This document shows, piece by piece, positions 17,171 to 29,175 of a stretch of 64,000 bases of DNA. Under the pieces are notes generated by a model, which had not been told where the DNA came from, made no database searches, and saw only the letters and a list, made by a program, of their open reading frames with translations. Location of the stretch: assembly GCA_048882045.1 (NCBI GenBank), contig JBHLRZ010000011.1, positions 1 to 64,000 of the forward strand, written 5' to 3'. This DNA comes from Candidatus Thorarchaeota archaeon. GTDB lineage: Archaea; Asgardarchaeota; Thorarchaeia; Thorarchaeales; Thorarchaeaceae. Position 1 is the first letter of the stretch. The number at the start of each line of letters is the position of its first letter. The position numbers were made by a program, and so were the translations under genes.

Positions 17171-18028
17171 ATGATGGTCAAAGATTGCATGCAAGCAGAC
17201 GTGGTTCACGTTTCTGTACCTGGGACCAGAGAAGATGTTCTTCAGATTATGGCTGACGAACAGGTGAATGGTCTTCCTGTTGTGAAGAAAGGTTCCAAGA
17301 CTCTTGTAGGTATTGTAACAAGAACTGACCTCCTTAGAAAGGCTGACGAAAACCAACTGGCTATGCTCATGGTGAGGGACCCGGAAACAGTCAAACCTAG
17401 GACTGAAATCAAGACAGCTTTGAAGATCATGTTGGAAAAGAGGTATAGACGACTTCCAGTTGTTGAGAAGGACGAATTGGTAGGGTTGCTGTCAGTCCCA
17501 GATATTCTAGGAGCTACTCTTGAGAATGATGAAAATTATGGTTCGATGGAGATAGCAAAACTTGTCACTAGACGTGTGAACGCAGTCTGGGAAAAAACTC
17601 CGCTCCCTCTGTCCTATATGATAATGGAAATGGCTGGGAAGAATGGTCTCGTTGTCCTTGGAGAGGGTGGAAACGTGACCGGAATGATTACTGTGAGCGA
17701 CTTCATCCGTCTCTCAGAGGTCACTGTCGAAGACAACATCTCCCAGACGTTCAGTGGTACTGACAGTGCAGTAGACTGGGGTTGGACTTCAAAGGACTTC
17801 CTCGTTGTGACGAAGAAACTCCTTCGTCTTCCGGGGACAGCTGTTGAGGAAGTGATGACCAAGAACATAATCAGCTTCGGTGAACTTACAACCGTTGCTG
17901 AATGTGTTAGAACTATGCGGAAAGAAGACATTGACCAGGCACCCGTACTATCTGTGACGGGCAGTCTCATAGGAATGATAGAAGACAGGGACTTGCTCAA
18001 ATTGGCTCTCGAAACACAGTCAGACTAA
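17171..18028 (+). CDS. CBS-domain protein (four CBS domains)
   Basis: Repeated LPVV...LVGI(V/L)(T/S)..D motifs. Confidence 0.9.
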   Translation: MMVKDCMQADVVHVSVPGTREDVLQIMADEQVNGLPVVKKGSKTLVGIVTRTDLLRKADENQLAMLMVRDPETVKPRTEIKTALKIMLEKRYRRLPVVEKDELVGLLSVPDILGATLENDENYGSMEIAKLVTRRVNAVWEKTPLPLSYMIMEMAGKNGLVVLGEGGNVTGMITVSDFIRLSEVTVEDNISQTFSGTDSAVDWGWTSKDFLVVTKKLLRLPGTAVEEVMTKNIISFGELTTVAECVRTMRKEDIDQAPVLSVTGSLIGMIEDRDLLKLALETQSD

Positions 18029-21000
18029 GGCTCAATGAAGTCGGTGATAGATGTCTGTTCAGATACAAATAGTGAATTAAGAGCAGATGTAATGAGTTTT
18101 AGCCGTTCTCTCTGATACTGATCAAGATTATGATCCTCTATGATTTGCCTTGTGACTTCAAGATACTTGGAGATATTTTTCTGTCGAACTGTCAGAGAGA
18201 GCTTGTTTCCACAGACACATTCTCCTGAGAGAGGGATTCTTCTGTAAACCCTTCTGCACTTTTGACATTGTATTTTTTGGGTTGAGAATGCACGAAGGTT
18301 CCCTCTGATATCACGGAAGAAATGGGTTGAAAGCACACGTTCAGCAACATTCTGCGCATCCACGGCTTCTATGAGAGTTGCCAACTCCAATTGTGCACTG
18401 AGTTTTTCATCCATACTACCTAAAATCTTGTAGCGTGTATTCTTTGGACCAAGATCAAATGACCTGGTGTCATGTGTGAAACCAAATCCTTCGTATTGTG
18501 CAGCGGTGTTCAATCGAGACGCAATTATATCAACAAGGTCTTCGACCTCTTTCGGATGTCTTGCCTCAGCCACCATCTCGTAGAATTTTGCAGGATACCT
18601 CTTACAGACCTCAATGTTGTGACTTTCGTCATCCACCTCTGTCGGGTTGAGAATCACAGAAAGAACTAGAGGGGCATCCATCAGTCCTCCACGTCCTGCT
18701 GGTAGATAGTCCTTCGAGAAGTTTAGAAGAGCGTCAAGGACCAGAATCAGAGCATCCTCATCACCATCACAGTTCCGTCTCTTTGCAGCGTGCCAGTAGG
18801 GGTGTGCATAGCAAACACTTGCATTAGTGAAACCGACTATCCTACCAATGATTCCTGCAGACGTGTGAGGCGCTAGGCCGATAACAAGTTGACCAACCAC
18901 ATCCTCTTGTGCACTGAACTTGTAGAATCTCTCAAGCCCATAGATTTTCTCCAGGCAGTCGTCTACAAACCTCCCTACTCTGACGAGGTACATAGCGCAG
19001 TTCTCTGGTATTACGATATCTTGAACCTTCAACTCCAGGATTTGGTCTTGAGATATTAGTGGCTGTCCCTCATAATCTGTGATGTAACCAAGTTCTCGAA
19101 GACGACTCACAGGGACTCCTATTTCTTTGGGTGTAAAATGGGTGAGTGGAGCATCGGTTGCATCGAACCTAGCAGTTCCATCGCGATAACAGTATACATC
19201 ATGCTTTGCCCGTAGTATTCCCTTTCCCAGATACTCTGGGATCTTGTAGTCACTGGTGAGACCAAGAACACCACGAACGCCATGTGCCTCCAATTCGTCA
19301 ACTTCTACCTTGATCCTGTCAATCAGGTGTGCTAGTGGAACGGAATACTGACGTGTCTTGCTATTGTCATGTCCATATTGGCATGTGCCAGTCTTCTTGT
19401 CAATTGGTTGACCACAGTTCTCATAGGAACAGGAAACAACGGTATGTGTCCCGCATTTGTCACACTTGGACTCGTATGTACTGTTGGAGCAGTTAGGACA
19501 GATGCGGAAGACCATCTCGAGTTCTACAGGTATCTCTTGTGCCCATGATTCAAAGCTAATGTCCTCAGAGTCCTGATCTTCCGAGTCATTCTCCATGGTT
19601 TCCTCAATGGTTGGTTGATACTCCATACTCTTGGCTACTTTCTCAATCTGCCTTTCTGTGCCTTTCGAACGTCCAACAGGGAATAGAACTTGGACAGGTG
19701 GTCTCATCTTACGTTCCTCTGCTTTTTCGGGACGGCCCATTCTTGCACCAATTGAGAATCCAACCTTATCCATCAGTTTTACAGAGGAAACAGAGTTCAG
19801 GAGTTCCAGAGTAGAGTTGCCCTTTGTTTTCGCTTCCTTTTCTCCAAGTTGTGCCAAAATGACGATTGGATCATCAGTCAGACGAATGGATTTCTTGTCA
19901 TTGCTGAGTTCATGAGGGACTCCAGCAGTTTCTAGAAACTTCTTGTTCTTTAAATCGAAGGGGAGAACGAGGGATGAGTCCTTCCCGATCTTGTATTTTG
20001 TTAGAATCCATTTTCTCAAGGTCAGGGCGTCCTCTAGAGCTAAAGCAGACCATCGATAGAGATAGTGAGGGTGCAATGGAATCTTGAGTTTCTTTGATAG
20101 ATGAACAGCCTGGGAAGGATGGGGGATACGTGAGAGTGGTGAGTCCACCATCTCATTCACATCATCGAGAGTCAGCTTAGATCCTAATCGCTTGGTCAAT
20201 GTAGAAACTGACAGCTTTGATATTGCATCATCAAGGTCGTGAGACCACCATTCTTCACAATATCCCGAGGGCACAAGAGGATGATTGTTTTCAAGAAACT
20301 CTCCAAGGGCTACCAGTAAATCACCAAGATACAGAATGCGTTCAATCTTACCTTCTAGTTGTCTTGCCTTTTCGCTGTCTTGAATCCGCATCACGGACCC
20401 ATCTTTTAGAAGAACAATTGGTCCTTCAATCGAGTCCACTGGAGCCACGATTGATCCTTTTCCTGGTCGTTCTGTCCGAATATGGGTCCCTGGTGCTAGG
20501 AACTCCTCCACGATAAACATCGTTGCAGGATGGACTCCCACTCCTGCAAGACCTGTGTTTCTTGAACGACCATACCTGAGTCTGAAGCCTCCAACACGGG
20601 AGGGATGAGAGAATACAGGTCTCCCGCCTATGACATCTGCTAAATAGTCCGCCTTGGGTTCTAGTGTCTTTGATGCAAAGTCCTCTTCATCTGTACTTGT
20701 CTTTGACAACTTTGTAGCGAGTTCGTTCAACCATTCCCACCCGGAGATGTTCACACCACTTACAATCTTTGCCAGTTTTGCCGCTTTACCAACAACACCA
20801 TCGTTCAGAACTAGAACTGACCCCCCACGAACTCGATTACTTTCAATACGTTCTAGGTCACGAGTTCCTGAAACTTCAAAATCCTCAGTAGGATCCCCCG
20901 TCAGTAGTATTGGTAGTCGTGATGCTACAAAACGGATTGCATCCGGATTAACAGGATATTGTAGGTTTGCCAATCGTGCATAAAGCTCAATCTCTTCTAG

Positions 21001-21732
21001 AGCTCGCTCTGTTTCCTCTTCGGTAGACCTGAATGCAGGGAGTTCAAGGACCTGGCGTACATGATCTGCCACCAGGACTGTCATTGCAGCTTCAGTCCCA
21101 CCAGCAGCACGTATCGGACCAGCAAGGTATAGAGCTAGGTACTGATCTTCGCCTGACCCTTCGATACGAACCTTCGAGATTCCTTCAAGAGGCGCTGCTG
21201 TGATACTCTCTGTGAGAATTGAGAGGCCTACTCGTACAGCCTTGTCTGCAGCCTTCTCCGCAGCTTCTCTTGCAGTTTTTTCACCAAACTCTTTGGCTAT
21301 GACCATCGCCGCGAACCCATTGTTGTATTCAGGACCAAGCTCCTCACGTTTCTTGTCTATCATAGACATTATTTCACCGGGGTTGTATCTGGGATTACGA
21401 TTTACAATAAGGTCAACTGTTTCCTTTACATCGCTTAGTGTCCCTTCAGCAATTTCCTTGGCAATAGCGAAAGCAACTTGCTCTCGAGACAAGTTTTTCT
21501 CCTGAAACTCACGAATTCTCCTTGCAACACCAACTGGACCATCGAGTGTTGCCTCAACTCGTGCAGCAACATCGTGTGCGGGGGGTATCTCGACTCTTGT
21601 TGTTGGATCATATCCTTGTAATCTGGCTGATTCTGCAATAGCGTATAGAGTATGTATTTCCTCATTTAGAGAACTGAAATACTGTTTGTAGAATATGCTA
21701 TGTTTTGGAAGACTCAGTTCGGATTCGGTCAC
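18025..21732 (-). CDS. polC: DNA polymerase D large subunit DP2
   Basis: AAPLEGI, GPIRAAGGT, GFRLRYGRSR, GARMGRPEKA, catalytic HAAKRRNCDGDED. Confidence 0.98.
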   Translation of the reverse strand: MTESELSLPKHSIFYKQYFSSLNEEIHTLYAIAESARLQGYDPTTRVEIPPAHDVAARVEATLDGPVGVARRIREFQEKNLSREQVAFAIAKEIAEGTLSDVKETVDLIVNRNPRYNPGEIMSMIDKKREELGPEYNNGFAAMVIAKEFGEKTAREAAEKAADKAVRVGLSILTESITAAPLEGISKVRIEGSGEDQYLALYLAGPIRAAGGTEAAMTVLVADHVRQVLELPAFRSTEEETERALEEIELYARLANLQYPVNPDAIRFVASRLPILLTGDPTEDFEVSGTRDLERIESNRVRGGSVLVLNDGVVGKAAKLAKIVSGVNISGWEWLNELATKLSKTSTDEEDFASKTLEPKADYLADVIGGRPVFSHPSRVGGFRLRYGRSRNTGLAGVGVHPATMFIVEEFLAPGTHIRTERPGKGSIVAPVDSIEGPIVLLKDGSVMRIQDSEKARQLEGKIERILYLGDLLVALGEFLENNHPLVPSGYCEEWWSHDLDDAISKLSVSTLTKRLGSKLTLDDVNEMVDSPLSRIPHPSQAVHLSKKLKIPLHPHYLYRWSALALEDALTLRKWILTKYKIGKDSSLVLPFDLKNKKFLETAGVPHELSNDKKSIRLTDDPIVILAQLGEKEAKTKGNSTLELLNSVSSVKLMDKVGFSIGARMGRPEKAEERKMRPPVQVLFPVGRSKGTERQIEKVAKSMEYQPTIEETMENDSEDQDSEDISFESWAQEIPVELEMVFRICPNCSNSTYESKCDKCGTHTVVSCSYENCGQPIDKKTGTCQYGHDNSKTRQYSVPLAHLIDRIKVEVDELEAHGVRGVLGLTSDYKIPEYLGKGILRAKHDVYCYRDGTARFDATDAPLTHFTPKEIGVPVSRLRELGYITDYEGQPLISQDQILELKVQDIVIPENCAMYLVRVGRFVDDCLEKIYGLERFYKFSAQEDVVGQLVIGLAPHTSAGIIGRIVGFTNASVCYAHPYWHAAKRRNCDGDEDALILVLDALLNFSKDYLPAGRGGLMDAPLVLSVILNPTEVDDESHNIEVCKRYPAKFYEMVAEARHPKEVEDLVDIIASRLNTAAQYEGFGFTHDTRSFDLGPKNTRYKILGSMDEKLSAQLELATLIEAVDAQNVAERVLSTHFFRDIRGNLRAFSTQKIQCQKCRRVYRRIPLSGECVCGNKLSLTVRQKNISKYLEVTRQIIEDHNLDQYQRERLKLITSALNSLFVSEQTSITDFIEP

Positions 21733-21894
21733 AACAAGTCACCTTATTCATGAACAGTGCTTTATTTTGTGTTTCGCTACGTGACACTAAAGACGTCCTC
21801 TTAGCTCGGGGCAATTGAGGTATTACTTTAAAGCAGCTGACGTAGACGAATCCATAACCTAAACCAATATGATATGGTCAGGGAGAGAAACCAC

Positions 21895-23679
21895 ATGCTC
21901 ACTCTTGAGGAAACTATTGAACGAATTCTGAAGAACAGGACCGATTTGGAACGTAAAGACATATCAAAAATGATCCAGGACAAACGAGAGGAACTAGGTC
22001 CTGAGGTTATCAATGACGAGTCTGCAGCCATGATTGTGGCTCGAGAACTCGGTGTCGATCTCCACCAGATGTCCGCATCACGAATGAAGATTGAAGATTT
22101 GACAGAAACAACAAGAAATGTCGCAATAAAAGCAAGAGTCGACCACATTGGCGGAGTACGAACGTTCGCCAAGAAAGACGGAGGTGGAGAAGGCAAAGTA
22201 GCCAGTATTCGAGTTTCTGATGATTCGGGAAGTATCAGGGTCGTCCTGTGGGATGACCTGACAAGAATAATTGAGGAGGACCTCATTTCAGTTGACGAGA
22301 TGATTGAGGTGCGTGGAGGGTTCATGAGAAAAGGTCTCGGTGATTCTCTTGAGATAAGCATGGGTAGAATGGGGAATATTAGACCACTTGATGAGCATGA
22401 AATAGAAGAACTCGGCAAAGATTTTGGTACCTCACACTCAGAGGAGATGAAAATATCTGACCTCACTGAGGGATTGTTCGGAATCAGCCTGAAGGCAAAG
22501 ATACAGAGGGTTTTCAGACTCTCGACCTTCACAAGACAGAGAGATGGATCAGAAGGGAAAGTTCTGAGTATGATTGTCGCTGACGAGTCCGGTACTGTAA
22601 GACTCGTTTTTTGGGATGACAGTGCAACTCAAATGGAAGATGCTGAAGACGGCGAGGTCATTCGACTAAGAAACGTGAACGTTAGAACGACCCGTGACGG
22701 TTCTGCTATTGAAGTGCATATTGGCAGATCAGCAACAATCGAACGAAACCTCGAAGAAGAGATAGATGCTGTGGAATCAAGTCTTGCTGAAAGAACAGCC
22801 GAACCTTTGGGGATGAAGGATATCGCAGATTTGACTACGGGAATGTGGGATGTCGATATCGAAGGTAAGGTTGTCACAGCATACGATGTGACGACTTTCA
22901 CAACCAAGGATGACAGAGAAGGACGAGTTAGAAACCTCATTCTGGCAGACGAGTCTGGTAAGACTCGTGTTACTTTTTGGAACGAAGATGTCGACAAGAT
23001 TGAGGACATCAAGGAGGAGGACATCATCAGGATTCTTCATGGTTACGTCAAAGAAGGTTACAGGGGTGGCGTCGAATTCCAAGTAGGCAAGAAGGCTGAA
23101 ATCCAAATCAATCCCAAGGGCTCCAAACTGAAGAAACTGGATGTTTCACAGGTTTCCCTACAGCCTTTGACAAAAGCTGCTAGAGTCCCAATTGGTGACA
23201 TTGATGACAGTCATCAGGATAAGAATGTGGAGATTTGTGGCATAGTTGTGAACTTGAGCCAGAGTACGAGTCCTATCTATCAGGCTTGTCCAAGTTGCAA
23301 TAAGAAACTGGATGAGGAGAATGGAGGATATGTCTGCAAGTCGTGTGGGAAGGTCAAAAATCCAGAACCAAGAATGCTGTACAAAATCACTATTGATGAT
23401 GGATCCGGATCAATACGAGTGACTTTGTTTGGGAAGGTCGGTGAAGAACTGCTTGATATGACTGCTGTAGAAGCTGATGAGATTATCAAGAAATCTGGAA
23501 AGGAGGAACAACCCTTGATTGATAATGCAGACAAAGTTGTCGGAAAATACATCTCAGTATATGGACGAGTCAAGAAGTTCAGAGATTCATTGGATTTATC
23601 GGCCAATGGTTTCGAATTTGCGGACCCTGTGAAGGAAGTAGAGAGGCTGAAAGAAGAGATACAAAAAGAGGTCGCCTAG
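21895..23679 (+). CDS. rpa1: Replication protein A large subunit (DUF2240/AROD-like N-domain, four OB folds, Zn finger)
   Basis: Repeated D(D/E)SG.(I/V/T)R..(L/F)W OB motifs, YQACPSCNKK...CKSC; ATG at 21874 or 21895. Confidence 0.93.
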   Translation: MLTLEETIERILKNRTDLERKDISKMIQDKREELGPEVINDESAAMIVARELGVDLHQMSASRMKIEDLTETTRNVAIKARVDHIGGVRTFAKKDGGGEGKVASIRVSDDSGSIRVVLWDDLTRIIEEDLISVDEMIEVRGGFMRKGLGDSLEISMGRMGNIRPLDEHEIEELGKDFGTSHSEEMKISDLTEGLFGISLKAKIQRVFRLSTFTRQRDGSEGKVLSMIVADESGTVRLVFWDDSATQMEDAEDGEVIRLRNVNVRTTRDGSAIEVHIGRSATIERNLEEEIDAVESSLAERTAEPLGMKDIADLTTGMWDVDIEGKVVTAYDVTTFTTKDDREGRVRNLILADESGKTRVTFWNEDVDKIEDIKEEDIIRILHGYVKEGYRGGVEFQVGKKAEIQINPKGSKLKKLDVSQVSLQPLTKAARVPIGDIDDSHQDKNVEICGIVVNLSQSTSPIYQACPSCNKKLDEENGGYVCKSCGKVKNPEPRMLYKITIDDGSGSIRVTLFGKVGEELLDMTAVEADEIIKKSGKEEQPLIDNADKVVGKYISVYGRVKKFRDSLDLSANGFEFADPVKEVERLKEEIQKEVA

Positions 23680-23747: not shown

Positions 23748-24020
23748 ATGAGTCCTACTCGTATGGTTGTAGCAGAGAAGAACTATCTCAGAGGTGTTCT
23801 TAGAGCATTCCTTGAAGGGAAGAAGACACTCAACTATGTGGTAGGATGTTTCAAAAACGTACCAATTTCAATCTTTGATGAAGTGGCAAAAGATCTGTCT
23901 GAATATTCTCAAAATCTGCGATGGGGACAGCTTTACAAGATAAGACAAAAACTCATTCAGAATTTGGATAAGCGAGACGACAAGACACGTTGGAGTCCAT
24001 GGGTACTTGGCAAGTATTAG
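23748..24020 (+). CDS. Hypothetical protein
   Basis: Fills the gap between rpa and sufS; ATG at 23748 after AT-rich upstream region. Confidence 0.55.
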   Translation: MSPTRMVVAEKNYLRGVLRAFLEGKKTLNYVVGCFKNVPISIFDEVAKDLSEYSQNLRWGQLYKIRQKLIQNLDKRDDKTRWSPWVLGKY

Positions 24021-25258
24021 GAACTCGCTTCAATGAGTGCATTCATAGCTTCCAGAAAGGTGTCGACATCTGACCTATTGTTATAGATATAGAAACTTGC
24101 ACGGGCAGTTCCCTTCTTTGGATCAATACCCATTTGATAGTGGAAGGGACCCACGCAATGCCAGCCTGACCGTACCATGACATTGAACTCATCATTAAGG
24201 AAAGTTGCTACATCATGTGCAGATGAAACTGTGTCAACAGTAAAAGTGACCAATCCGGTCTTAATCGAGATGTCCTCTGTTCCGAGAATGTGGACGGATT
24301 CCATTTTGAGAAGTTGCTTCAGTGCCATTTCAAGTAGAGACCTTTCATATTTCTCTATTTCACGCATACCTATTGACTGAAGATATTCAGCTGCTGCACC
24401 TGCTCCGATAGCACCAGCGTAGTTTTGAAGACCAGCTTCAAATTTCTCAGGAGGAGGCAGGTATTCGGGAATAATTTCATCGTTCTCAAACCGAACATCA
24501 CTGACCGTATCACCACCATAAAAACACATGTTCATCGACTCGAGATGTTCCAACTTTCCATAGAGAACCCCCATGCCAGTGGGCCCACACATTTTATGCA
24601 CAGAAATAGCTGAGAAATCAACATCAAGAGCTTGCACATCTAACGGATGATGAGGCGCGTACTGAGCATCATCACTCATTACAAGAGCTCCCCGATCATG
24701 TGCCAGTTCGACGATTTCTTTCAGTGGTGCAACAGTACCAGTGACGTTCGAAGAGTGGACAATCGAGATAAGACTGGTCCTGTTGTCAATTGCGTTCTTC
24801 CAATCTTCGATGTCAAAGGTCCCATCATATTGAGCTTTGACTATCTCTATGTCCAGTCCATCTCTCTTGGCCCGTTCGACAAATGGAAGCGACCCACTGT
24901 GGTGTTCAAGTGACGTTGTGATGATTTTGGAATCTTTGGGAAGTCTAACTGAACCTGCAACTATGTTTAGTGACTCAGTCGCATTTCTTGTCCATATGCA
25001 CTCTTCCTGATGGGCGGCGTTGATGAACCTTGCAAACTTGCCTCTTGACGACGAATAGGCGTTCGATGCCTCCTCGCCAAACTTGTGGATACTTCTTCCC
25101 CCACAAGCAGGATATTGTTCGTAGTATTCATTCATAGCGTCAATGACCTGTCGAGGTTTGAGTGCCATACATGCACTGTCCAAGTAGACGACTGGACGAC
25201 CGTTGATTGTTCTTTCAAGTGCTTGGAAGTCATTTCGGATCTTTTTCCAGTCGACCAT
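24017..25258 (-). CDS. SufS-like cysteine desulfurase (class V aminotransferase)
   Basis: VYLDSA, SVHKMCGPTG, KFEAG, RSGWHC, RASFYIYN. Confidence 0.9.
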   Translation of the reverse strand: MVDWKKIRNDFQALERTINGRPVVYLDSACMALKPRQVIDAMNEYYEQYPACGGRSIHKFGEEASNAYSSSRGKFARFINAAHQEECIWTRNATESLNIVAGSVRLPKDSKIITTSLEHHSGSLPFVERAKRDGLDIEIVKAQYDGTFDIEDWKNAIDNRTSLISIVHSSNVTGTVAPLKEIVELAHDRGALVMSDDAQYAPHHPLDVQALDVDFSAISVHKMCGPTGMGVLYGKLEHLESMNMCFYGGDTVSDVRFENDEIIPEYLPPPEKFEAGLQNYAGAIGAGAAAEYLQSIGMREIEKYERSLLEMALKQLLKMESVHILGTEDISIKTGLVTFTVDTVSSAHDVATFLNDEFNVMVRSGWHCVGPFHYQMGIDPKKGTARASFYIYNNRSDVDTFLEAMNALIEASS

Positions 25259-25263
25259 GGGAA

Positions 25264-25497
25264 TCAGTTTCCTGCCAATTGCCACCGATATCCACCCTTG
25301 CCGAATTTCTTAGTGATCAACCCCTTCTCAACAAGCTTGTTTGCAGCTGCAACAACGGCATCACCACCTGCACAATCAGTGCACAAATCGGCATATTCCT
25401 CAGTCTGAGCAATCTCAAGAATCTCGGTTGTTGTTAGAGCGTCAGAGCTTTCGAGAATCTTGAGCACACACTGAGCATTTCTAGAGAATTCGGACAT
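25264..25497 (-). CDS. Small winged-helix protein
   Basis: Helical region followed by LVEKGLITKKFGKGGYRW wing; contains CxxC. Confidence 0.65.
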   Translation of the reverse strand: MSEFSRNAQCVLKILESSDALTTTEILEIAQTEEYADLCTDCAGGDAVVAAANKLVEKGLITKKFGKGGYRWQLAGN

Positions 25498-25657
25498 CGT
25501 TAGCCGAAGCGGAACAACTAGCAATAAGAAGCCTTCGTAATGACTAGCAATGTCATTCAACAAAATGCTTAAATCAACATCCGAGCCGAAGAGCCCGCTC
25601 TATTTCTTTCGGGGCCTGTGCTCTGTTTGTGTGAAATAGGCGTAGGGGTGATACCCA

Positions 25658-25909
25658 ATGGGAAGAAGAAGAAGACAAAAAGTGACCCGACGACCACAGA
25701 AGAGGATTCCAGATGTTTATCCATGCCCAGACTGTGGTAACACAGCCATCAAGATTGAACTCTATCGTGATAATGGCATGGCAACGGTAAAGTGTGGATC
25801 GTGCGGGCTTGAGATGACCATTGATGAGGTAAACCCATTAACTGAACAGGTCGACATCTATGGTTCTTTCATAGACAGATTCTATGAAGAGAGAAAAGCC
25901 GCAGCTTGA
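25658..25909 (+). CDS. elf1: Transcription elongation factor Elf1
   Basis: MGRRRR, YPCPDCG...VKCGSCG, VDIYGSFID. Confidence 0.92.
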   Translation: MGRRRRQKVTRRPQKRIPDVYPCPDCGNTAIKIELYRDNGMATVKCGSCGLEMTIDEVNPLTEQVDIYGSFIDRFYEERKAAA

Positions 25910-26097
25910 TGGAGTACAACACTCAACATTCAGGAATGATTATAAGCGGACACACTCCGAGGACGCAGGATTCCAATGCAAGCTACAACTTTCACCACCA
26001 TCTTGTTTATCATACTAGCCGCGATGGGCATTTTCGCTCTGCTTATCTCAATGGGCTACATGATTTACGGAGAGGAAGAGGAAGAGTAGAGAACGGG

Positions 26098-26322
26098 ATG
26101 TCGTTCCCGATGACTGGTTCGATTATACGCACTGCTTTTGAGAGGGTTGCACCGCACATCTCTAATCTTGATGATATCAAAACACTTGTTGAGGAACTCG
26201 AAAAGATTGATTCTCTGGATTCATTGATAAGTGAACTTGAAGCACGAATGGAAGATGCTGAAGTGACCTTTAGAACTGATATACGTATCTTGATTAACGA
26301 ATGTCGACGCGTCAGGAAATAG
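26098..26322 (+). CDS. Small helical hypothetical protein
   Basis: C-terminal 74 aa of the ORF are protein-like and lie directly upstream of lhr. Confidence 0.55.
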   Translation: MSFPMTGSIIRTAFERVAPHISNLDDIKTLVEELEKIDSLDSLISELEARMEDAEVTFRTDIRILINECRRVRK

Positions 26323-26334
26323 GATGTCGACCTG

Positions 26335-29175
26335 ATGGTTGAGTTTGCACCTCTGAGCAAGGAGATAGCTGATTTTCTCCAGAAGAACGGAATAACCCAT
26401 TTCACTCCCATTCAGGAACGCGCGATACCCCTTCTACATGATGAAACCGAGAATGCTTTGCTCCTGGCTCCTACAGGAAGTGGTAAGACAGAGGCTGCAT
26501 TGCTACCGCTACTTCATCGTCTTCAGATGATGAAGGCAACTAAGGAACTCTTTGGTTTCTATGTTATCTATATTACACCATTGAGAGCTCTGAATAGGGA
26601 TGTGTTCAAGAGAATAGAAGAACTGTGCGAACATCTTGGACTAACCGTTGCTGTTCGCCATGGTGATACTACTCAGTATGCAAGAAGGAAACAAGCGATC
26701 AGTCCTCCAAACTTGTTGATTACTACACCTGAGTCATTGCAGGCAATCCTCCCAGGAAAGCGTCTTAGATATCATCTCAAGACTGTCTTTGCAATCATCG
26801 TTGATGAGATTCATGACCTTGCAGACAGCAAGAGGGGAACTCAGCTCAGTCTTGGTTTGGAAAGACTTGAACGTGTCATTGGGAACAGAGTACAACGAGT
26901 CGGACTCTCGGCTACAGTTGGGAATCCAAAGGAAGTAGCTGCCCTACTAGGAGGAGCAGGGGAGGTCAAAACAATCTGGGCAGGGTATGACAAGCGTCAG
27001 ATGGAACTAAGTGTTGTAATGCCGGAACCAACAGACAGTCACAAACAGCTTGCACGGAAACTATCCTATCCCCCACACTCAGTAGCACGACTCGAAGCCA
27101 TCGTAGATTTGATCAAGGCTCACCAGTCCGTCATTGTGTTCACTAATACAAGATCCTTCTCAGAAGTCCTTGGAGCAAAGATGCGTGCAGTCAAGCCACC
27201 CTATGATTTTGATGTACATCACGGATCTCTCTCTAAAACAGCAAGGCTATCTGCTGAGGACAGGCTGAAGACGGGCGTTTCAAAAGCAATTATTGCAACC
27301 TCGAGTCTCGAGCTTGGGATAGATATTGGACAGGCAGACCTAGTGATTCAGTATTCCTCGCCGAGAGAAGTTTCACGAATGCTGCAAAGAAGTGGTCGTT
27401 CGGGTCATGGGATTGGCAAGTCCTCAAAGGGCGTGGTTATAGCCACAATGAACCTTGACGATATCACTGAGTCTGGGGTGATTCTAAAAAGAGCCAAACA
27501 AAACAAAGTAGAGAACGCTAAGATACCACGAAAATCATGGGACGTTCTTGGTCATCAGATTGCAGGTATTCTGATGGATGCTGACGAGATTGAGAAGACT
27601 GAATTATTGAATATCATCTCCTCAGCATATCCATTCACTCAAGTTTCAATGGAGGAACTAACCAAGCTGGTTGAGTTTCTGCAAGAAAGAAAGGTATTGG
27701 AGGCTGAGGGAACAGTTGTGAGAAGAGGCGCAAAAACACGCATTTTCTACTATGATCGACTTAGTACGATACCAGATGTTCAACAAGTGAATGCTGTGGA
27801 CATGACCACACGTACAGCTATTGGTGTACTAGATGAGGACTTTGTGTCAGCCAATGTTGAACGAGGTTCAGTATTTGTCTTTAGAGGAAGACCTTGGAAT
27901 GTGGTGAATATTGATGATGACACTGGGGAAGTATTTTGTGCTCCAGCTTCAGGGACGGACAGTGATGCGCCGCGATGGGTCGGAGAGATGATTCCGGTCC
28001 CCTATGAAGTCGCCACTGAAGTGGCAAAGCTATGGAATACTATCTTAGAGAAGGACTCAAAGGCACTCAGCAGATGGTTGGTTCGAGAATATGGAATTGA
28101 AAAACAAGCCCACAAGTATCTCCGTGACACTCTCCAGACAAGCATAGATATACTAGAGAAACTTCCAACTGAAGACCTGTTTGTGTTAGAAGACTTTGAC
28201 TCAGGTCTGGTTCTACATGCACCGCTTGGTACAAAGGTCAATGAAACATTGGGGATAGTCATCGCATCTCTCCTGACTACCCGGTTCGGGGTCGAAGTAG
28301 CTGTAGAGAGAGACCCATACCGTATTCTATTCACAGCAGGTAAACGGATAGATCCACAGTGGATTATTGATGTCTTGAAAGAGTATTCAGGTCAACAAGT
28401 GTCAGTCATTCTTAGACTAGCCATGAAGAACACTCAGAACTTCAGCTCACGATTCATTCAGGTAGCACGACGTATGGATGTGGTTCGAAAGGATGCAAAG
28501 ACAAAGGAGGTTCCTGTCAAGTATCTCATCAAGTCATTTGAAGACTCTCCCGTGTACCAAGAGGCCATGAGAGAGGTCTTGGACGACAAGATGGATGAGA
28601 AGAGGGTCATGGACCTCTTTGATAGATACTCGAAGGGTGAAATTGAGATTCATTCCGTCATAACCAAGGGTCCTTCACCTCTGGCCAGATTAATAGTGGA
28701 AGAGAAGACCAGATTTGAGGTCATGGGAGAGATCACAGAAGAAGATGAGGTGCTTCGGATGATGGAAGAGCGTCTTCTCTCCAAGAAGTTCAGATTGGTC
28801 TGCATGGCTGAGGGACACTGGAACTCTGTAAGAACTCTCTCCACATTGGATGATACTGTTGCCTGTCCAATTTGTGACTCAAAGATGATTGCTGTTACTT
28901 CTCCTACGAAGAAAGACATCCCAAAGATAGTAACCAAAAGACAGAGAGGCGAAACACTCACAAAGACAGAGGAAAAAGAACACAAGGCAGCTTCCCTCAC
29001 TGCAGAACTAGTGTCGAGATATGGAAAGACAGCACTCATAGTATTAGCGGGAAGAGGTATTGGAGCTACAACTGCTGCTCGGATACTAAAGCCGAGATTG
29101 AAGGACCGACTCGAGATCCTCAAAGAGATTGCCAAGGGAGAACTACAGTATGAGAGAACTCGACAGTACTGGTAG
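26335..29175 (+). CDS. lhr: Lhr-family SF2 helicase
   Basis: APTGSGKT, ITPLRALNRD, VRHGDT, DEIH, GLSAT, HHGSLS, QRSGRSGH, C-terminal Zn motif. Confidence 0.93.
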   Translation: MVEFAPLSKEIADFLQKNGITHFTPIQERAIPLLHDETENALLLAPTGSGKTEAALLPLLHRLQMMKATKELFGFYVIYITPLRALNRDVFKRIEELCEHLGLTVAVRHGDTTQYARRKQAISPPNLLITTPESLQAILPGKRLRYHLKTVFAIIVDEIHDLADSKRGTQLSLGLERLERVIGNRVQRVGLSATVGNPKEVAALLGGAGEVKTIWAGYDKRQMELSVVMPEPTDSHKQLARKLSYPPHSVARLEAIVDLIKAHQSVIVFTNTRSFSEVLGAKMRAVKPPYDFDVHHGSLSKTARLSAEDRLKTGVSKAIIATSSLELGIDIGQADLVIQYSSPREVSRMLQRSGRSGHGIGKSSKGVVIATMNLDDITESGVILKRAKQNKVENAKIPRKSWDVLGHQIAGILMDADEIEKTELLNIISSAYPFTQVSMEELTKLVEFLQERKVLEAEGTVVRRGAKTRIFYYDRLSTIPDVQQVNAVDMTTRTAIGVLDEDFVSANVERGSVFVFRGRPWNVVNIDDDTGEVFCAPASGTDSDAPRWVGEMIPVPYEVATEVAKLWNTILEKDSKALSRWLVREYGIEKQAHKYLRDTLQTSIDILEKLPTEDLFVLEDFDSGLVLHAPLGTKVNETLGIVIASLLTTRFGVEVAVERDPYRILFTAGKRIDPQWIIDVLKEYSGQQVSVILRLAMKNTQNFSSRFIQVARRMDVVRKDAKTKEVPVKYLIKSFEDSPVYQEAMREVLDDKMDEKRVMDLFDRYSKGEIEIHSVITKGPSPLARLIVEEKTRFEVMGEITEEDEVLRMMEERLLSKKFRLVCMAEGHWNSVRTLSTLDDTVACPICDSKMIAVTSPTKKDIPKIVTKRQRGETLTKTEEKEHKAASLTAELVSRYGKTALIVLAGRGIGATTAARILKPRLKDRLEILKEIAKGELQYERTRQYW

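Follow-up and report, generated by a model that had tools for sequence, protein, structure and literature searches.

The large subunit (DP2) of the D-family DNA polymerase (PolD) encoded by a Candidatus Thorarchaeota genome very probably carries a domain taken from another replisome protein: in the ancestor of a Thorarchaeota subclade, an in-frame copy of the Rpa1 AROD entered a loop of the DP2 KH-like domain; the copy kept its fold, changed rapidly and then came under purifying selection. The genes in question lie in the 64,000-nucleotide stretch of DNA analyzed here (the window). Judged from sequence comparisons, this is a real domain capture of single origin that has been maintained by selection, and binding of RPA by the insert is a candidate role only.

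The DP2 insert and its similarity to Rpa1

The DP2 gene (window positions 18025–21732, minus strand) is an open reading frame of 1235 codons whose product matches four Pfam families above cut-off and has the N-terminal, central, catalytic and C-terminal zinc-finger regions; the catalytic N-x-D-x-D motif is present as NCDGD and the KH GG motif as AAGGT, and the DP2 model outside the insert matches 3o59 in a fold search (Z 29.7). The inserted segment, residues 100–157 (21262–21435, minus strand), replaces a 5-residue loop for a net gain of 53 aa (159 bp). It lies in the short loop that opens the KH-like domain, before the second helix of that domain, and comprises an AROD-homologous core (residues 101–150; 21283–21432, minus strand), with helices predicted at residues 102–112, 118–132 and 138–148, and a conserved linker (residues 151–157; 21262–21282, minus strand), which has no homology to Rpa1 and is predicted to lengthen the DP2 helix that comes after it. 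The linker resembles that following helix at 13/21 bases, which is too weak to claim a short tandem duplication. Solved Pyrococcus and Thermococcus DP2 chains pass from residue ~95 to 98, where the counterparts in the window DP2 are 102 and 158, and because the Pyrococcus chains have no counterpart of the segment we regard it as an insertion. Elsewhere in the protein, an acidic low-complexity loop (residues 708–730; 19543–19611, minus strand) is found in the genus and is absent from two outgroups; it is longer in the inspected insert carriers, where several carrier-specific residues flank it. One carrier DP2 (P0004, at L038:3001-7317) has ~200 extra residues near 715–935 with no Pfam match.

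Head to head with DP2, across an intergenic region at 21733–21873, lies the gene for Rpa1 (21874–23679, plus strand; 601 aa), which has an N-terminal AROD, three OB folds, a zinc-binding OB fold and a C-terminal helix. A distance of 141 bp separates the two starts (162 bp when counted to a second Rpa1 ATG at 21895), in agreement with the roughly 150 bp first estimated. The Rpa1 AROD/DUF2240 domain (residues 10–60; 21901–22053, plus strand), the likely donor of the insert, is still intact and barely passes the DUF2240 cut-off (22.7 bits against 22.3). Rpa1 length differs within the genus (~593 to 765 aa), a spread that gain or loss of an OB fold could explain, and in L045 its gene is split in two. 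The neighbors at 24017–29175 are cysteine desulfurase-like (24017–25285), Elf1-like (25658–25909) and Lhr-type helicase-like (26335–29175) genes, named from sequence and, for the cysteine desulfurase, also from Pfam matches in related loci. On contigs C3, C7 (two), C29, C12 and C26, genome G000 has four single-OB SSB-like genes, three of them with Gly/Arg-rich tails, and two proteins in which an unrelated N-terminal domain is fused to a C-terminal OB fold.

An earlier note, made from the letters of the window, had proposed that DP2 contains a copy of the Rpa1 N-terminal domain, and this homology holds. DP2 residues 101–150 and Rpa1 residues 10–60 share 21/50 identities with one gap (BLASTP, E 2e-9). 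The local score between insert and Rpa1 is 94, whereas 5000 shuffles averaged 30 and never exceeded 53, and in a profile–profile comparison, one of the checks then suggested, the insert and Rpa1 profiles align at 98.7% (E 2.6e-16). AlphaFold2, given an alignment of DP2 sequences only that held no RPA rows, models the insert as three helices with pLDDT above 90. Among 48,161 solved chains the best matches to this model after DP2 itself are the Pyrococcus abyssi ARODs 8aaj (Z 9.1, rmsd 1.4 Å over 54 residues) and 8aa9 (Z 8.5, rmsd 1.4 Å, overlap 54–55 residues), with unrelated chains at Z 5.7 and below; a Z of 9.1 is under the tool's safe level for helical bundles, stands well above the unrelated chains and agrees with the sequence result. 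The Pfam family PF09999 (DUF2240), which is the AROD domain according to the AROD study (PMC10122647), matches 8/12 inserts (best E 0.0022), the window's own insert giving no match. Sequence and modeled fold together indicate that the insert is an AROD homolog by fold and by descent.

Lineage and constraint of the insert

The named relatives are Thorarchaeota. The 21 distinct insert sequences, which come from independent Thorarchaeota assemblies and include DP2 clusters added by protein searches, have identical length, occupy the same site and show no indel, and a search for the insert in other proteins or lineages gave 18 matches among longer proteins, all of them DP2. The insert-bearing segment is matched over its full length in 3/86 genomes of the family (this genome, G004 and G012), the other 83 having no match to it, and the short ancestral loop is seen directly in 21 genomes of the same genus. 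Across 121 Asgard genomes searched, the DP2 N-terminal domain is uninterrupted in ~109 of the 114 with a match and split within one frame only in this genome, the remaining exceptions being partial matches or contig breaks. This survey across Asgard archaea, also suggested earlier as a check, indicates that the segment is not a normal part of DP2 and, with the solved Pyrococcus chains, agrees with the note's statement that canonical DP2 has only a short linker at this place. Second AROD matches in the 10 Asgard genomes checked, out of 16 with two matches, include none in DP2.

In a DP2 tree built with the insert removed (a quick tree with one distant outgroup), the 13 carriers group together (SH-aLRT 99) and fall among non-carriers; this topology argues for a single gain, within part of one genus of Thorarchaeota. 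The earlier view of the insert as lineage-specific is thus correct, but its range is far narrower than “Asgard”; the insert is shallow, has no bearing on eukaryote origins, and its narrow range limits its wider importance. In each of the ten genomic contexts retrieved, Rpa1 retains an N-terminal domain of its own and is transcribed divergently from DP2, and since the head-to-head arrangement is also present in relatives without the insert, it predates the insertion.

The insert is under purifying selection, as the note had surmised, and is constrained like an ordinary domain, less so than the donor AROD. Among carriers dN/dS is 0.084 for the insert, 0.061 and 0.049 for its flanks and 0.108 for a central DP2 region, compared with 0.046 for the Rpa1 AROD and 0.099 for the first Rpa1 OB fold; these values are from pooled pairwise counts, with synonymous sites near saturation (dS about 1.6). 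The stem branch of the insert is ~1.04 changes per site, a rough estimate from 59 columns; for the remainder of DP2 that branch measures 0.10. The insert thus changed about ten times as fast as the rest of DP2 after capture and then froze.

The hydrophobic pattern was kept through this change, with one core residue deleted relative to the donor, as were the polar residues E104, T105, K128, R129, E131, N137 and E148, which the donor shares with the conserved insert. Twelve polar positions that are near-invariant in 33 Thorarchaeota Rpa1 ARODs (T10, E12, E16, K20, D24, E26, R27, D29, E44, D48, E49 and S50) have been substituted in the insert or vary there, and new near-invariant residues that the donor lacks have appeared at 112–114, 139–140 and 152–156 (N113, P114, G139, F140 and the K152–E156 linker). 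The net charge is −4 to +1 in 13 inserts, compared with −3 to −8 in 33 donors. When the P. abyssi AROD/OB-1 interface is transferred by sequence register rather than by coordinates, salt-bridge residues K16/17 correspond to R112, which is basic in 20/21 inserts; E23 corresponds to insert residue 120, where the donor has D, 17/21 inserts have Q and 4/21 have an acid; and E27 corresponds to M124 in the insert, a position at which the donor is also non-acidic. These surface changes weaken the case for retained OB binding, with the qualification that the Thorarchaeota AROD interface itself may differ from the P. abyssi register.

Possible roles of the insert

The AROD binds OB-1 in trans and, in isolated domains, lowers the ssDNA affinity of OB-1 tenfold, while its deletion from whole RPA leaves the affinity unchanged, and its authors proposed a role in RPA exchange; OB-fold binding in trans with lowered OB-1 affinity is the only AROD activity reported (PMC10122647). 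The note had named binding to an Rpa1 OB fold that drives oligomerization; the effect given in the study is weakened ssDNA binding. The KH-like domain of DP2 orients the template and lies at the primer–template fork (PMC6355029; 10.1101/2023.08.09.552591).

We tentatively rank first the reading that the insert is a second, weak RPA hand-off contact, a protein-binding appendage that would still engage an RPA OB fold through its remodeled surface, close to the docking on RPA that the note had proposed; it stands only just ahead of recruitment to a new partner, and ahead of a tolerated passenger. Since the KH-like domain sits at the fork, an AROD tethered at that point might weaken the hold of the next RPA on the template strand and so help to pass ssDNA to the polymerase. 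This reading is favored by the AROD fold match, the low dN/dS, the 21 indel-free variants and the shared polar residues that were kept, as well as by OB binding being the only reported AROD activity and by the position of the KH-like domain. It is disfavored by the loss of the twelve donor polar positions, the reduced acidity, the mostly Q residue at the E23 equivalent, the long stem branch, the 83/86 family genomes without a match, and an intact Rpa2.

The last point arises because a PolD–RPA contact is already known in P. abyssi, where the Rpa2 winged helix binds DP2 Accessory-1 (PMC11686378). The present genome has an Rpa2 homolog with a C-terminal winged-helix-like region, and Rpa2 is full length in 26/27 genomes of the genus, G014 (contig end) aside, and in 3/3 carriers. 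Compensation for a lost winged-helix route is therefore rejected at the gene level, Rpa2 being full length in carriers and non-carriers alike; with Rpa2 intact nothing needed replacing, and the insert contact would be an addition to that of the winged helix. The Accessory-1 contact residues align poorly in the window DP2, so that a contact with Rpa2 is unconfirmed by alignment. A complex prediction of DP2 53–177 with Rpa1 66–430 scored 0.01 against a mark of 0.32; it gives no answer and is evidence for neither side. Rpa1 has ten carrier-specific sites in 300 residues, indistinguishable from ordinary clade divergence.

A parallel in mobile elements lends RPA hand-off circumstantial support by analogy. 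A Thorarchaeota mobile-element protein family has a predicted N-terminal fold that is Rad52/Sak-like (Rad52 match at Z 8.5 over 118 residues), a match tied in Z with a shorter one to a dsRNA-binding domain; 7/68 members carry an AROD-like segment, and 8/68 others carry Gins51_C (PF22090), a host replisome module. One member (P0035, at L099:733-1671 in genome G020) adjoins a primase/helicase-like ORF at 1672, and a fold search with its whole model returned no AROD match, the list being filled by the N-terminal domain. The fuller proposal, that the polymerase took over the RPA exchange domain to loosen template RPA ahead of the active site and that mobile-element annealing proteins took up the module independently, is in our judgment rather unlikely; if true, it would make the AROD a portable RPA-handling module and the insert a natural test of the proposed exchange mechanism.

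It is possible, though we place it second, that the AROD fold served as a scaffold for a new function, with the DP1 OB domain or a further part of PolD (the insert then acting as an internal brace), another replisome protein, or DNA beside the KH-like domain as its partner. The burst of change followed by strong constraint and the near-invariant residues absent from the donor favor this reading, and the lost acidity fits contact with DNA or with a different partner. F140, however, may just occupy the space in the core where the donor has I46, and DP2 near the insert shows no evident co-adaptation: with a single carrier-specific site, residues 1–98 and 158–340 do not look like one side of an internal interface adapted to the insert. 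We consider it unlikely that the insert is a tolerated passenger, an accidental in-frame duplication in an exposed loop that lost its RPA surface as useless or harmful and is conserved only so as to fold harmlessly. An adjacent donor makes such an accident mechanically easy, the hydrophobic core was conserved while the donor polar invariants decayed, and after a single gain in a small subclade the sister lineages manage without the insert; against this, its dN/dS is as low as that of ordinary DP2 and OB domains, and many polar residues are invariant, with no loss or indel among the 21 variants despite the high dS.

If RPA hand-off, our first-ranked reading, is true, the insert has implications for how a polymerase clears RPA off its template, and for whether the AROD exchange model, which to date has been demonstrated with isolated domains only, also works in a replisome. 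If the insert does not bind RPA, it is still a clear domain capture from a neighboring gene followed by rapid remodeling. The DP2 architecture is very stable, and it is unusual for it to have a folded domain of a different replisome protein fixed within it. The capture can be placed on a single branch, and close relatives without the insert serve as natural controls.

The donor gene and known systems

The neighboring Rpa1 gene is the likeliest donor, as the note had also supposed, because the insert profile scores 37–56 bits on Thorarchaeota-family Rpa1 ARODs, ≤27 on other Asgard ARODs and ≤13 on mobile-element copies, the insert groups with the Thorarchaeota-family ARODs on a tree, a search of 1.84 billion proteins gave as full-length matches Rpa1-type N-termini plus a single, weaker DUF2240 protein, and no third AROD copy was found in the genome. 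Homing-endonuclease repeats matched in the same protein search cover only a short motif and were rejected. The host's own Rpa1 is thus the most likely template of the insert, and the event would have been a local inverted duplication, its source the divergent gene 470–600 bp away; the best residual inverted-repeat arm (21318–21363) has 46 nt that are 72% complementary to 21970–22015. That the same domain came instead from a diverged mobile-element AROD or a lost paralog is improbable: the long stem branch, the failure of the insert to nest among the carriers' own Rpa1 ARODs and the occurrence of AROD-like segments outside Rpa1 in Asgard genomes would suit it, but the profile scores and protein matches above do not, and the homology begins at the Rpa1 start. 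Other Asgard genomes encode further AROD-like domains that are not part of Rpa1 (L098:1489-1683, L112, L100:1459-2232 and L101): stand-alone proteins of 65–66 aa, a Swt1-like HEPN fusion and a small Cys-rich protein with an AROD-like copy at its C-terminus.

Two similar segments within 1 kb of a metagenome assembly might suggest an artifact, and this or chance similarity has virtually no probability and is already refuted by the existence of diverged carriers, the two copies being just 50% identical in DNA, the same insert occurring in independent ENA, JGI and NCBI assemblies, the stretch lying on one contig that shows no differences in the runs of two studies (of which either may be the source sample), and the shuffle test excluding chance. 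The note had argued likewise from the codons of the shared KREELGPE, which do differ at the synonymous positions it listed; the identity of that motif is real and partly incidental, most Rpa1 proteins of insert-bearing genomes reading KRQ there.

The insert has in common with the archaeal AROD/DUF2240 domain its three-helix bundle, superimposable at 1.4 Å, and its homology to the host Rpa1 AROD; it differs in being internal to DP2, neither at an Rpa1 N-terminus nor stand-alone, in being near neutral instead of acidic, and in the replacement of conserved polar donor residues. Very rare exceptions only, with stand-alone forms named, are given for ARODs outside Rpa1 in the accessible portion of PMC10122647, and a literature search of incomplete coverage found no report of an AROD–DP2 fusion. 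Inteins and other DP2 insertions are likewise in frame, whereas the window insert is only 53 aa long, all-helical in its model, fixed in a clade and derived from a host domain, and it matches no intein family, so that an intein was rejected. The Asgard PolB–DP2CTD fusions of Baldrarchaeia also attest to domain shuffling among replisome genes in Asgard archaea, in that case with other domains and in the other direction, and a search of their report found no mention of AROD (PMC12680538). The closest functional counterpart is the Rpa2 winged helix on P. abyssi DP2 Accessory-1, a direct PolD–RPA link proposed there for ssDNA hand-off; in P. abyssi the module is on RPA and its site is 55 Å from the active site, whereas in Thorarchaeota an RPA-derived module lies inside the polymerase, in the KH-like domain (PMC11686378).
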